A DNA stretch of 64,000 nt. Origin: Escherichia coli (GTDB lineage Bacteria > Pseudomonadota > Gammaproteobacteria > Enterobacterales > Enterobacteriaceae). Each line of letters opens with the position of its first letter. The first letter of the stretch is position 1. The DNA lies in assembly GCF_024502345.1 (NCBI RefSeq), contig NZ_JALDNN010000001.1; one strand, 5' to 3'. Below, in pieces: positions 27,095-62,391 of this stretch. The position numbers were made by a program, and so were the translations under genes. The notes beneath the pieces were generated by a model, which searched no databases, was not told the DNA's origin, and saw only the letters and a list, made by a program, of their open reading frames with translations.

Positions 27095-27151
27095 TCATTA
27101 ATCGGCAACTTTGGGTTGCCGCCAAATTGCTAATATCGAGTACGTTGCTTC

Positions 27152-27254
<103 letters not shown>

Positions 27255-32997: not shown

Positions 32998-33096
32998 GCC
33001 TGATGCGCTGCGCTTATCAGGCCTACTGGGTGAGTTGCAATATATTGAATTTGCACGATCTTGTAGGCCGGATAAGGCGTTTACGCCGCATCTGGC
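32998..33096. repeat. REP/BIME element downstream of livF
   Basis: GCCTGATGCGCTGCGCTTATCAGGCCTAC and inverted GTAGGCCGGATAAGGCGTTTACGCCGCATC. Confidence 0.8.
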
Positions 33097-33196
33097 ATGA
33101 AACGATGAGTAATCTGTAGAGTTTGATTCAGACCTTCTATTTTTCCGCTTATCCGTGCCCCATCTCCCATTTTCCCTCACCCACGCCGTCACCGCC

Positions 33197-41348: not shown

Positions 41349-41843
41349 TTATGAACAACTGTCCATGATTTCGTTTAAGAATGAAGAGAAATCACTAAAC
41401 GAACTGAATATATTTTCTGTGCCAATATTATCTCTAATTTCAAAAAAGTTACTTTTAATGTCATAAGTAAATATTGAAATGCTATCATCCCCGATCACTA
41501 ACCGTTCTTGTAGATCAGGGTTTATGAAATCATCATTATTTCTATAAAATTCATTTACGGCAAAAAGGTTTTTAACTGAAGGTTCTGGAATCGAGAGGCT
41601 AAATAATCGTAATCCATTAACTTCGAATCCATCCATTGCTCTTAAAAAAGTAAGATAATCAGGTTGATTCTTAAAAAGAATACTAACTTCATTACATAAC
41701 TTCTCCAGGCAATTAGTTGAATTAGAATTAAATTCTATTTGGATTATACTTTCAATAAATGATTCCTTGAGCGGAGCTTCAAATGGATAGTCTAAATCAT
41801 TCATCATTTTTATTAATTTATTTATTTGGGTTTTAGTCATCAT
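41349..41843 (-). CDS. yrhA: YrhA, putative immunity protein for the YhhZ nuclease domain; intact here
   Basis: 164 aa; start overlaps the yhhZ stop (ATGA); no IS1 interruption in this window. Confidence 0.75.
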   Translation of the reverse strand: MMTKTQINKLIKMMNDLDYPFEAPLKESFIESIIQIEFNSNSTNCLEKLCNEVSILFKNQPDYLTFLRAMDGFEVNGLRLFSLSIPEPSVKNLFAVNEFYRNNDDFINPDLQERLVIGDDSISIFTYDIKSNFFEIRDNIGTENIFSSFSDFSSFLNEIMDSCS

Positions 41844-43018
41844 TTTGTGTGGTCCATAATATTTTTCATGGGAGGATAAATTGAGCCAGATGGAATGGCC
41901 CAGGGAGTGATTTTGCTTTCACCTACTAATATTCCCTTAGCTATTCGTGATTGCATGTTAGTAAAAACTTTATGATATGGTTCGTTTTCGATTAATACTA
42001 AATTTTCGAAATCATTAGTACCACCATCATCTAGAGATAGTTTATGGTGAACATTATAATTTAGAGGAGCATTGCCCTTTCTCATTCTTAAAAGGTCTTC
42101 GGCGTTGAATCTTCCAGATGCTTCGGAGGTTTTTGCAAGTTTGATAAGAAAATTTTTTCTTACAGTTTTATTAAACTCCTTTCGTAAGTTAGCTAAGTCT
42201 TTTGAAGGTCTCTTAATGTATATTATTTCTATTATGTCTATACCATCAAGAAGTTTTTGTTGACCTCTAAGTTTGCCTAAGTAACTATTTATTTCTGTAT
42301 ATGTATCAACATTAGAACGCTTTGTTAAAAGAATAGATGCTGTTGCTATCGCTATGCCCGCTGTTTTTTCATTTAGTATTTGATCATAGCCTTTTATTGC
42401 ATCTCCACCCAGTTTTTCCGCAGTATCTCTGAATCCTTCAATGTTCCCATTGTATACGCCACCAGCAGCAAGTAGCCTGCCAATAGCTTTGCTGTTTAAC
42501 GTTTTGAAACGATTATTTGTTTGGTTTTTTGAATTTGGTAAAAACAAACGGTTATAATTTTCAGGGAGTGCCAAATAGCTGAACTCGGTATTTGCGATAA
42601 GATGTTGACAGAGGATAAATTCATAACTAATAGTTATTGTTTCTGTATCCAGTTGGTTTTCAATGATCTGGTGATGAATAGCCGATAAAAAAGCGCCTCT
42701 TAGTTGTATATAATAATACTTTTCCAATCTACCAAATCTATTTATTCGATAGAAGTCAAATCCCATAAATAATTGTTCATTATTGTTAATGGAATTAATA
42801 AATAATGGAGTGCTTTTATCAATTAATTTACAAAATGTTATACCATGGAACTGTGAACCAAGCCCCGTATTATTAATATTATTTAAGAGTGAGAATGTAA
42901 ATATTTCATCCTCATGCCCGCTCTGCCAACGATTACCTGTAGACTCAGAAGTCCCACAACCTGCGGAGATGCTTCCTTGTTGTTCTCCCGTTACTGTCAG
43001 GTAAACAATATTACTCAT
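41840..43018 (-). CDS. yhhZ: YhhZ, Hcp-like N-terminal domain fused to a C-terminal HNH-type nuclease domain
   Basis: 392 aa; N-terminal VYLTVTGEQQGSI... Hcp-like pattern; C-terminal NYNVHHKLSLDDGGTNDFENLVLIENEPYH HNH motif; low-GC sequence. Confidence 0.85.
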   Translation of the reverse strand: MSNIVYLTVTGEQQGSISAGCGTSESTGNRWQSGHEDEIFTFSLLNNINNTGLGSQFHGITFCKLIDKSTPLFINSINNNEQLFMGFDFYRINRFGRLEKYYYIQLRGAFLSAIHHQIIENQLDTETITISYEFILCQHLIANTEFSYLALPENYNRLFLPNSKNQTNNRFKTLNSKAIGRLLAAGGVYNGNIEGFRDTAEKLGGDAIKGYDQILNEKTAGIAIATASILLTKRSNVDTYTEINSYLGKLRGQQKLLDGIDIIEIIYIKRPSKDLANLRKEFNKTVRKNFLIKLAKTSEASGRFNAEDLLRMRKGNAPLNYNVHHKLSLDDGGTNDFENLVLIENEPYHKVFTNMQSRIAKGILVGESKITPWAIPSGSIYPPMKNIMDHTK

Positions 43019-43250: not shown

Positions 43251-43739
43251 TTACTTCACCCGCGCCATATAATATGCATCGACATATTCACCATTACGCA
43301 ATGCGTACTTCTTACCAGTCCCTTCAATTTCAAAGCCGTATTTTTTATAGACCTTAATTGCCGGGGCGTTATCGACAAACACGGTTAGTTCAATGCGATC
43401 TACCCGCAACCAGTTGTCGCACATTTCAATCATCTCTCGCATCAGGGCGCTGGCGACGCCGCGGTTCTTCCAACGAGAGTCGACACAGATACCAAAATCG
43501 GCAACATGACTGCGGCGTGGGCGCTGTTGCACGTCAATGGTGAGATGGCCCACGACGTCTCCATCAATACAGGCGACGAGTTGCTTGATGCCGGGACGAT
43601 CGGCGAGTCGCTCCTGCCACATATGATCGGAAGGATGAGGCACCTGTAGTGTGTTGCAATACACCTCCGGCTGGGCGTGAATCTGCCTGATGGCCTCGTA
43701 ATCCCGTGTTTCTGCGTGGCGTATTACTATCTCACTCAT
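43251..43739 (-). CDS. yhhY: GNAT-family N-acetyltransferase YhhY
   Basis: Track ORF 43251..43817; internal ATG at 43739 (MSEIVIRHAETRDY...) gives 162 aa. Confidence 0.88.
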   Translation of the reverse strand: MSEIVIRHAETRDYEAIRQIHAQPEVYCNTLQVPHPSDHMWQERLADRPGIKQLVACIDGDVVGHLTIDVQQRPRRSHVADFGICVDSRWKNRGVASALMREMIEMCDNWLRVDRIELTVFVDNAPAIKVYKKYGFEIEGTGKKYALRNGEYVDAYYMARVK

Positions 43740-43833
43740 TCCTTTGTCCTCTTTGGGGTAAATGTCCCTTTCAACATCATTGACTTTCAAATGCGAGTCA
43801 AATGCATTTTTTTGCAAAAAGTGTTGGACAAGT

Positions 43834-43856
43834 GCGAATGAGAATGATTATTATTG
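43834..43856 (+). promoter_or_regulatory. Fur box overlapping the ryhB promoter
   Basis: GCGAATGAGAATGATTATTATTG resembles the Fur consensus GATAATGATAATCATTATC; lies immediately upstream of the RyhB 5' end. Confidence 0.8.
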
Positions 43857-43860
43857 TCTC

Positions 43861-43955
43861 GCGATCAGGAAGACCCTCGCGGAGAACCTGAAAGCACGAC
43901 ATTGCTCACATTGCTTCCAGTATTACTTAGCCAGCCGGGTGCTGGCTTTTTTTTT
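43861..43955 (+). ncRNA. ryhB: Fur-regulated small RNA RyhB
   Basis: GCGATCAGGAAGACCCTCGCGGAGAACCTGAAAGCACGACATTGCTCACATTGCTTCCAGTATTACTTAGCCAGCCGGGTGCTGGCTTTTTTTTT matches recalled RyhB, including the terminator hairpin and poly-U; sits between yhhY and yhhX as in K-12. Confidence 0.92.
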
Positions 43956-44071
43956 GATCTTTCGTTCTCAATTTATCCACGGGAGTGCTTGTGTTCGTTA
44001 TGCGCACTCCAGTAGGAACCACGTCCGCTTTGCGCTAAGGTGTAAATAACCACCTTAAAAAGGACGAAATC

Positions 44072-45109
44072 ATGGTCATCAACTGCGCCTTTATTGGCTT
44101 CGGCAAAAGCACCACCCGTTACCATCTGCCGTATGTACTTAACCGCAAGGATAGCTGGCATGTCGCGCATATTTTTCGTCGCCATGCGAAGCCGGAAGAA
44201 CAGGCTCCCATTTATTCCCATATCCATTTCACCAGCGATCTCGACGAAGTACTAAACGATCCCGATGTTAAGCTGGTTGTTGTCTGCACCCACGCGGACA
44301 GCCATTTCGAGTACGCGAAACGCGCGCTGGAAGCCGGGAAAAATGTGCTGGTCGAAAAACCGTTCACTCCGACACTTGCGCAGGCGAAAGAGCTGTTTGC
44401 ACTGGCGAAAAGCAAAGGGCTGACCGTCACGCCATATCAGAATCGTCGCTTTGATTCCTGCTTCCTGACGGCGAAAAAAGCGATTGAAAGCGGCAAGCTG
44501 GGAGAGATTGTCGAAGTGGAAAGCCATTTTGACTATTACCGCCCGGTGGCAGAAACCAAACCTGGACTGCCGCAGGATGGCGCGTTCTATGGCCTTGGTG
44601 TGCATACGATGGACCAGATTATTTCTCTGTTCGGTCGCCCGGATCACGTCGCTTATGACATCCGCAGCCTGCGTAATACAGCCAATCCTGACGACACCTT
44701 TGAAGCGCAACTGTTTTATGGCGACCTGAAAGCCATCGTCAAAACCAGCCATCTGGTGAAAATCGATTATCCGAAATTTATCGTTCACGGTAAGAAAGGT
44801 TCGTTTATTAAATACGGTATCGACCAGCAGGAAACCAGCCTGAAGGCTAATATTATGCCGGGCGAACCGGGATTCGCAGCGGATGATTCGGTCGGTGTGC
44901 TGGAGTATGTCAATGACGAGGGCGTGACGGTCAGAGAAGAGATGAAGCCGGAGATGGGCGATTACGGGCGCGTTTATGATGCGTTGTATCAAACCATCAC
45001 CCACGGTGCGCCAAATTACGTCAAGGAATCTGAAGTTCTTACCAATCTGGAAATCTTTGAACGCGGATTTGAGCAAGCCTCTCCCTCCACAGTAACTCTC
45101 GCTAAGTAA
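44072..45109 (+). CDS. yhhX: Gfo/Idh/MocA-family oxidoreductase YhhX
   Basis: 345 aa; N-terminal Rossmann motif (AFIGFGKS); matches K-12 YhhX. Confidence 0.92.
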   Translation: MVINCAFIGFGKSTTRYHLPYVLNRKDSWHVAHIFRRHAKPEEQAPIYSHIHFTSDLDEVLNDPDVKLVVVCTHADSHFEYAKRALEAGKNVLVEKPFTPTLAQAKELFALAKSKGLTVTPYQNRRFDSCFLTAKKAIESGKLGEIVEVESHFDYYRPVAETKPGLPQDGAFYGLGVHTMDQIISLFGRPDHVAYDIRSLRNTANPDDTFEAQLFYGDLKAIVKTSHLVKIDYPKFIVHGKKGSFIKYGIDQQETSLKANIMPGEPGFAADDSVGVLEYVNDEGVTVREEMKPEMGDYGRVYDALYQTITHGAPNYVKESEVLTNLEIFERGFEQASPSTVTLAK

Positions 45110-60858: not shown

Positions 60859-62376
60859 ATGGAAAGAATAATGCAAAACAGAAAATGGATTTTGTCCTCG
60901 CTGGTAATGACTTTTTTCGGCATCCCCATACTGACGCAATTTTTGGCGGCGGTTGTTGCTATGCTGGGTGTCGGACTTGCCGGTATTATTGAAGTTTGTA
61001 ATATCCTTATCACGCCAACAAGTTACCTTCTGCTCAACATTTTTATGCTGGCGCTGGGCGCATTAATGCTATTTTTCTCGGGGCGAGTATGGGCAGGCGA
61101 TAGTGCACCAGAAAAAAGAGAAATAGCCGTCTGGCGACAATGTCTTTTTTTAGTACCCGGTTTATTAATCCTGGTTGGCTGGATAATCGCGCTGCATCTG
61201 GCAGATTATCAATTTCACCAGATGGGATCGGGTTGGTTGGCTGATCTTATGCTCCCCTGGCTGGGCGTTTTGTTAGTCTCAGTAGTCGGAGGTGAGTACT
61301 GGTGGATAGTCATTATACCCGTTGGCGCGCATATCAGTTTTTCGCTGGGGTACGGCCGGCCAACCAGACATCCTTTAACCGGTACATCCGGGCTACGTTG
61401 CCGTAATTCCCTCCTGTTTATCCTTCTCATGCTTGGTTTTGTCGCTGGTTATCAGGGTTATTTATATAAACAGCTCAATCCCGGCGTCGGTGTGCGCGAA
61501 AATATTGATACCTGGGCCTGGCGACCCGATAAACTCAATAATCAACTGACACCACTGCGTGGTAAACCGCAAATTCAGTTTACGCAAAACTGGCCGCGAC
61601 TCGATGGTGCTACGGCGGCGTACCCAATTTATGCCTCTGCATTTTATGCTTTAAGCGTTATACCGGAAGATTTTCACACCAGGGAATATCTGGAGAGCTC
61701 TCGTACCCCCGATGCGTATAACAGGATTGTTAAAGGTGATGCTGATAGTATTTTTGTGGCGCAACCTTCCGGTGGGCAGAAAAAACGCGCTGAGGAATCG
61801 GGCGTTACTTTGCTGTACACGCCTTTTGCCCGTGAAGCGTTTGTTTTCATCGTCAATGCGGATAATCCGGTTAATTCCCTGACTGAACAACAGGTGCGTG
61901 ACATCTTCAGTGGTGCAATTACCAACTGGCGTACTGTTGGCGGTAACGATCAGGAGATCCAGACCTGGCAACGCCCGGAAGACTCTGGTAGCCAGACGGT
62001 GATGCAATCCCAGGTCATGAAAAATGTCCGCATGATCTCGCCGCAGGAAACAGAAGTGGCAAGTATGATGGAGGGAATGATTAAAGTCGTTGCCGAATAC
62101 CGTAATACAAACAACTCAATAGGTTACACCTTCCGTTATTACGCAACACAAATGAACGCCGATAAAAATATAAAACTGCTAGCGATTAACGGTATTGCAC
62201 CGACTGCCGAAAACATTCGCAACGGCAAATATCCCTATATCGTCGATGCCTTTATGGTAACGCGGGAAAATACGATGTCAGAGACACAAAAATTGTTGGA
62301 GTGGTTTTTAACGCCGCAGGGACAGAGTTTGGTGGAAGATGTAGGTTATGTCCCGATGTATAAGACGCTACCTTAA
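60859..62376 (+). CDS. Membrane-anchored PstS-like (PBP_like_2) substrate-binding protein; likely the intact form of the gene that survives in K-12 as the yzgL remnant
   Basis: 505 aa; about 190 aa of N-terminal TM segments, then a C-terminal phosphate-binding-protein-like domain (NSLTEQQVRDIFSGAITNWRTVGG, RPEDSGSQ). Confidence 0.7.
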   Translation: MERIMQNRKWILSSLVMTFFGIPILTQFLAAVVAMLGVGLAGIIEVCNILITPTSYLLLNIFMLALGALMLFFSGRVWAGDSAPEKREIAVWRQCLFLVPGLLILVGWIIALHLADYQFHQMGSGWLADLMLPWLGVLLVSVVGGEYWWIVIIPVGAHISFSLGYGRPTRHPLTGTSGLRCRNSLLFILLMLGFVAGYQGYLYKQLNPGVGVRENIDTWAWRPDKLNNQLTPLRGKPQIQFTQNWPRLDGATAAYPIYASAFYALSVIPEDFHTREYLESSRTPDAYNRIVKGDADSIFVAQPSGGQKKRAEESGVTLLYTPFAREAFVFIVNADNPVNSLTEQQVRDIFSGAITNWRTVGGNDQEIQTWQRPEDSGSQTVMQSQVMKNVRMISPQETEVASMMEGMIKVVAEYRNTNNSIGYTFRYYATQMNADKNIKLLAINGIAPTAENIRNGKYPYIVDAFMVTRENTMSETQKLLEWFLTPQGQSLVEDVGYVPMYKTLP

Positions 62377-62391
62377 AGCTGGATAATAAAA

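Follow-up and report, generated by a model that had tools for sequence, protein, structure and literature searches.

The element at positions 43834-43955 of the 64-kb stretch of E. coli DNA analysed here (the window) is almost certainly the chromosomal ryhB gene, encoding the Hfq-dependent, trans-acting small RNA (sRNA) that drives the iron-sparing response of E. coli. The gene is already known; RyhB is a textbook sRNA central to iron homeostasis in enterobacteria, and there is nothing new in the element itself. No observation speaks against the identification. The value of the result is quality control and not discovery: a textbook sRNA and its regulatory site were recognised from raw sequence, with exact boundaries. 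The original discovery of RyhB is said to be that of Masse and Gottesman in 2002. The features of the locus, in window coordinates, are as follows.

43251-43739, minus strand: yhhY, GNAT acetyltransferase, with 0 amino-acid differences from K-12.
43825-43830, plus strand: -35-like hexamer TGGACA, at -36 to -31 from the annotated 5' end, found by the sigma-70-like scan and invariant in nine E. coli sequences.
43834-43852, no strand assigned: upstream, overlapping Fur-box-like 19-mer GCGAATGAGAATGATTATT, scoring 14/19 against the consensus and invariant in the nine sequences.
43840-43858, no strand assigned: main Fur box GAGAATGATTATTATTGTC, at -21 to -3, scoring 16/19 against the consensus GATAATGATAATCATTATC when read on the minus strand.
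43849-43854, plus strand: -10 hexamer TATTAT, at -12 to -7, found by the sigma-70-like scan.
43861-43955, plus strand: ryhB, the 95-nt RyhB small regulatory RNA, assigned by K-12 identity and Rfam RF00057 and invariant in the nine sequences.
43888-43928, plus strand: target-pairing region, RyhB nt 28-68 (C28-U68), the region taken for target prediction in PMC4666370.
43929-43955, plus strand: Rho-independent terminator and U9 tail, from the terminator scan, the MFE fold and the Rfam consensus hairpin.
44072-45109, plus strand: yhhX, Gfo/Idh/MocA oxidoreductase (Pfam PF01408 and PF02894), with 2 amino-acid differences from K-12.

A sequence-only reading of the window had placed RyhB, as a known element, in the yhhY-yhhX intergenic region and described a match along its length. 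Its location was confirmed by the two flanking genes listed above, and the arrangement yhhY(-)/ryhB(+)/yhhX(+) is the mirror image of that in K-12. Window positions 43861-43955 (+) share 95 of 95 bases with K-12 ryhB (b4451), which the curated MG1655 record annotates as a 95-nt ncRNA feature at NC_000913.3 3580922-3581016, complement; position 43955, the end claimed for the element, falls on the final T of that feature. The whole yhhY-yhhX spacer, 332 nt at 43740-44071, matches K-12 exactly. The Rfam 15 covariance-model search found RF00057 (RyhB) at 43890-43954 (+), with 83.1 bits against a gathering threshold of 55 (E = 3.6e-14) and an alignment taking in model positions 1-67 of 67. Both checks that had been proposed, the Rfam search and the alignment to K-12 ryhB, therefore came out in favour of the match. 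The RF00057 model represents the conserved 3' two-thirds of RyhB, and the 5' 29 nt (43861-43889), which lie outside it, were assigned solely by K-12 identity. The ryhB product is reported as 95 nt (PMC4509938). K-12 RyhB (also SraI) has the same sequence throughout, beginning at the -35 hexamer and ending with the final U of the terminator, with the same flanking genes, Fur box position and terminator; no difference was found within the element of this non-K-12 strain.

The promoter and terminator scans were made by simple consensus matching. TGGACA and TATTAT, separated by an 18-nt spacer, match the consensus at 10 of 12 positions and form the sole sigma-70-like site on either strand of 43650-44150. 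For Fur, every 19-mer of the window was scored on both strands against the classical 19-bp consensus GATAATGATAATCATTATC. The main Fur box received the best score of all, and with up to three mismatches the pattern occurred once in the 64 kb (both strands) and in 0 of 100 dinucleotide-preserving shuffles; it overlaps the -10 hexamer, and the Fur box that had been noticed over the promoter is thus real by this measure. The upstream Fur-like site is offset from the main box by 6 bp and begins at 43834, the start coordinate of the sequence-only reading; its score of 14/19 is also reached by five other 19-mers in the window. Jointly the two overlapping matches span -27 to -3 and cover the -10 hexamer. 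Clustered overlapping Fur sites, the strongest of 25.2 bits, were described 15 bp upstream of K-12 ryhB by Chen et al. (2007), and Fur binding there was confirmed by gel shift (PMC2189734). The sequence used in that gel shift is identical to the one in the window, and the two putative sites 6 bp apart fit the reported cluster.

The 3' end of the gene is formed by a hairpin at 43929-43947, with stem AGCCAGC/GCUGGCU (7 pairs, 5 of them G-C) and a 5-nt loop, and by nine consecutive T's (43947-43955) that close ryhB, as the hairpin and poly-U tail of the earlier description had it. The same hairpin is present in the MFE fold and in the Rfam consensus. Directly upstream of it, at 43920-43928, is the A/U-rich sequence GUAUUACUU, and these three parts (A/U-rich stretch, hairpin and U9) are the Hfq-binding module, Hfq binding itself being taken from PMC4509938, where the terminator hairpin and the 3'-terminal poly-U are reported as needed for RyhB-Hfq binding and the role of the 9-U tail is described.

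Within the target-pairing region, the predicted partner of RyhB nt 38-46 (43898-43906, GACAUUGCU) is a sodB segment that includes the start codon. In a dimer co-fold with K-12 sodB -60 to +40, a continuous 9-bp duplex was predicted between RyhB 38-46 and sodB -4 to +5, and the predicted pairing continues, discontinuously, into the Shine-Dalgarno region. The predicted ddG was -12.3 kcal/mol; shuffled RyhB gave -5.2 +/- 2.8, and 5 of 200 shuffles reached the value of the real RNA. The RyhB-sodB pairing was reportedly found by Geissmann and Touati (2004) as predicted here. Six genes of the window were checked for known RyhB targets, and none of them is mentioned in the Ribo-seq target study.

In K-12, the iron-sparing role of RyhB and its mechanism through Hfq and RNase E have been described (PMC4666370), together with its induction under iron limitation and the silencing of its targets (PMC4666370; PMC8896160). 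Because every base from -36 to +95 equals K-12, we infer that the same Fur-RyhB circuit operates in this strain, which would then have the standard circuit with an intact ryhB. In the circuit published for K-12, Fe2+-Fur on the box blocks the ryhB promoter as long as iron is plentiful, and iron starvation derepresses the gene. Hfq on the terminator/poly-U module stabilises RyhB, and the central single-stranded region (about nt 28-68) pairs with the translation-initiation regions of mRNAs for non-essential iron proteins, the targets being sodB, sdhCDAB, acnA and roughly 50 more. The pairing leads to a block of translation and to RNase E-dependent decay of mRNA and sRNA alike, and a few targets are instead activated.

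When 43700-44100 was used as a megablast query on the complete RefSeq E. coli genomes, all of them, the ryhB locus was found in 5424 of 5426, always on the chromosome and never on a plasmid, with a median of one copy per genome and with flanking genes annotated as yhhY and yhhX. A nine-way alignment was composed of the window and eight divergent strains, sampled at even steps from the lower-ranked records of the matches; seven of the eight records were 97.3-99.0% identical to the 401-nt query, and the eighth was a partial match to 85% of it. No variation was found at -36 to -2 or in the 95-nt RNA. The changes from -81 to +95 were G/A at -71, T/C at -66, an indel in the T-run at -54 to -48 and C/T at -1, the last (43860, between the Fur box and the transcription start) being the sole polymorphism in -36 to +95. 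The other substitutions and small indels sit at the yhhY end, farther upstream and in the ryhB-yhhX spacer. Such invariance is consistent with constraint and is not proof of it, the comparison being of nine sequences of one species at low divergence.

RyhB-1 and RyhB-2/IsrE of Salmonella and ryhB and ryhB-2 of Klebsiella belong to the same Rfam family and are likewise Fur-repressed sRNAs, and the Klebsiella ryhB orthologue is also located between yhhX and yhhY (PMC3415461). Unlike E. coli, those species have a second RyhB copy at another locus; scans of the 64 kb at gathering level and with permissive settings gave no second RyhB-like match.

In one of the aligned strains, E. coli S1-CAM-01-A (L012, 476-1500), an IS903B element lies at the equivalent of window position ~43761, upstream of ryhB by about 100 bp from its 5' end. 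In this strain yhhY, yhhZ and yrhA are missing and yrhD abuts the IS; ryhB itself is intact, as are its promoter and Fur box.

The 95-nt RNA was no more stable than its shuffles (MFE z = -0.67), and folding energy was dropped as support for RyhB. An sRNA with a long single-stranded seed usually folds no better than shuffled sequence. This is the sole weak point that could speak for a chance resemblance or for a decayed, non-functional remnant of ryhB, and we give that reading almost no credence, considering the 100% identity from promoter to terminator with an experimentally studied K-12 gene, the Rfam E-value, the near-universal presence of the locus and an RNA that is unvarying across the sampled strains whereas its flanks vary. 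Equally improbable is that the region encodes a small protein, instead of or besides the sRNA. Two candidate ORFs, 43762-44049 (+, 95 aa) and 43854-44015 (+, 53 aa), are listed in the six-frame translation, but neither has a Pfam match, both pass through the ryhB terminator, and ORFs like these are expected by chance in any spacer. The longer one begins upstream of the ryhB promoter; the shorter one has a TTG start inside the -10/Fur box, ahead of the transcript 5' end; and there is no AUG inside the 95-nt RyhB.

More serious is the proposal that ryhB is, in addition, the first part of a longer transcript extending into yhhX, a leaky terminator making yhhX iron- and Fur-regulated, in the manner of sgrS-setA. 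Here yhhX lies 116 nt 3' of ryhB on the same strand, and the spacer offers the ryhB promoter as its only sigma-70-like site, although the promoter scan is crude and a weak or alternative-sigma yhhX promoter is possible. On plasmid constructs, read-through at the ryhB terminator came to about 20% (Morita et al. 2015; PMC4509938). Iron limitation raises yhhX mRNA in wild type but not in a ryhB deletion that lacks the promoter too; the 2022 study puts the missing rise down to the promoter having been removed (PMC8896160). On the other side, the terminator is canonical and most transcripts end there, iron depletion makes ryhB termination more efficient, which opposes strong yhhX induction, and the read-through products lose Hfq binding (PMC4509938); a second weak hairpin is also present in the ryhB-yhhX spacer, at 43978-43993. 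In the known case for comparison, sgrS-setA, the gene of an Hfq-dependent sRNA shares a transcript with the protein gene downstream of it, and like ryhB-yhhX it has a leaky intrinsic terminator followed by a protein gene on the same strand (PMC4509938). The reported read-through is about 20% for ryhB and about 50% for sgrS, and co-transcription of ryhB and yhhX was only suggested by Morita et al. (2015), being experimentally undemonstrated as of that paper (PMC4509938). On balance we regard a longer transcript as possible, with the odds leaning against it. Somewhat more doubtful is the fuller claim that regulated read-through joins ryhB and yhhX into one functional, iron-regulated unit, with YhhX under Fur control; if true, the locus would give a protein output besides its RNA output. 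The idea of such a unit is already in print (PMC4509938, PMC8896160).

The 43978-43993 (+) hairpin is terminator-like, with 6 pairs and a T-poor tail, and an A insertion in its loop is polymorphic among E. coli strains. Together with the ryhB terminator it makes two terminator-like sites in the 501 nt scanned, against 0.5 expected. It could modulate yhhX read-through, or it could be chance.

The sequence-only reading had also supported ryhB as the only RNA gene of the window, and within the curated families and annotation this holds. RF00057 was the sole Rfam 15 family at its gathering threshold in the 64 kb, ARAGORN found 0 tRNA or tmRNA genes there, and ryhB is the only ncRNA in the curated K-12 annotation of the syntenic ~65 kb. 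The permissive Rfam scan gave two sub-threshold naRNA4 matches, with 40.4 and 36.6 bits against a gathering threshold of 59.5, and one ES036 match. They fall in intergenic repeats:

27147-27184, minus strand, and 33019-33103: naRNA4/ES036 sub-threshold matches.

These repeats cross-match other K-12 intergenic sites with 83-86% identity, and we read them as putative REP/BIME-type elements rather than dedicated sRNA genes. A snoRNA match with E = 0.52 was discarded as noise.

Among the annotations compared, only the curated K-12 record lists ryhB. The feature is absent in all nine RefSeq E. coli records with PGAP annotation that were examined (L002, L005-L012), which show yhhY and yhhX and no ncRNA at this position; therefore a widely conserved sRNA is missed beyond ORF tracks, and what had rightly been said of the ORF track, that it does not reveal the gene, extends to these records. 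Genes such as ryhB escape both ORF-based views and the PGAP RefSeq records examined.

The window aligns colinearly, in reverse orientation, with K-12 3.56-3.63 Mb, at 98-99% identity and with several insertion/deletion differences. Between yhhJ and nikR (5835-6650) there is a segment of about 0.8 kb with a HicA/HicB type II toxin-antitoxin pair, according to the annotation of matching genomes; K-12 has at this position a block of roughly 6.7 kb, rhsB-yhhH-yrhC-yhhI. The full yhhJ-HicA/HicB-nikR arrangement was found in 1489 of 5426 genomes.

Downstream of glgP (60859-64000) the window contains an island where K-12 has only a yzgL remnant. It opens with a 505-aa membrane-anchored PstS-family protein (60859-62376), and in E. 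coli E110019 the same island is composed of four genes between glgP and glpD. In the window, an IS903-family element interrupts the gene that follows the PstS-like one; the transposase of this element (62526-63494, -) shares 98% identity with an annotated IS903B transposase.

Closer to ryhB, the IS1E that splits yrhA in K-12 is missing (window 41349-41843, junction 41454-41462). The K-12 alignment skips the 768-bp IS1E with a 9-bp overlap, which we read as a putative target-site duplication, and an uninterrupted 164-aa ORF, probably yrhA, spans the site. The ungapped K-12 comparison loses register at ~43124, therefore a small indel is placed in the yhhZ-yhhY spacer. The neighbouring gene yhhZ (41840-43018, -) is annotated as "putative endonuclease" in K-12, and PGAP calls it "Hcp1 family T6SS effector". 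Its product has an Hcp domain (PF05638) in the N-terminal part, with E = 1.6e-11, and weakly matches HNH in the C-terminal part, with E = 0.0055, which suggests an Hcp-nuclease fusion.
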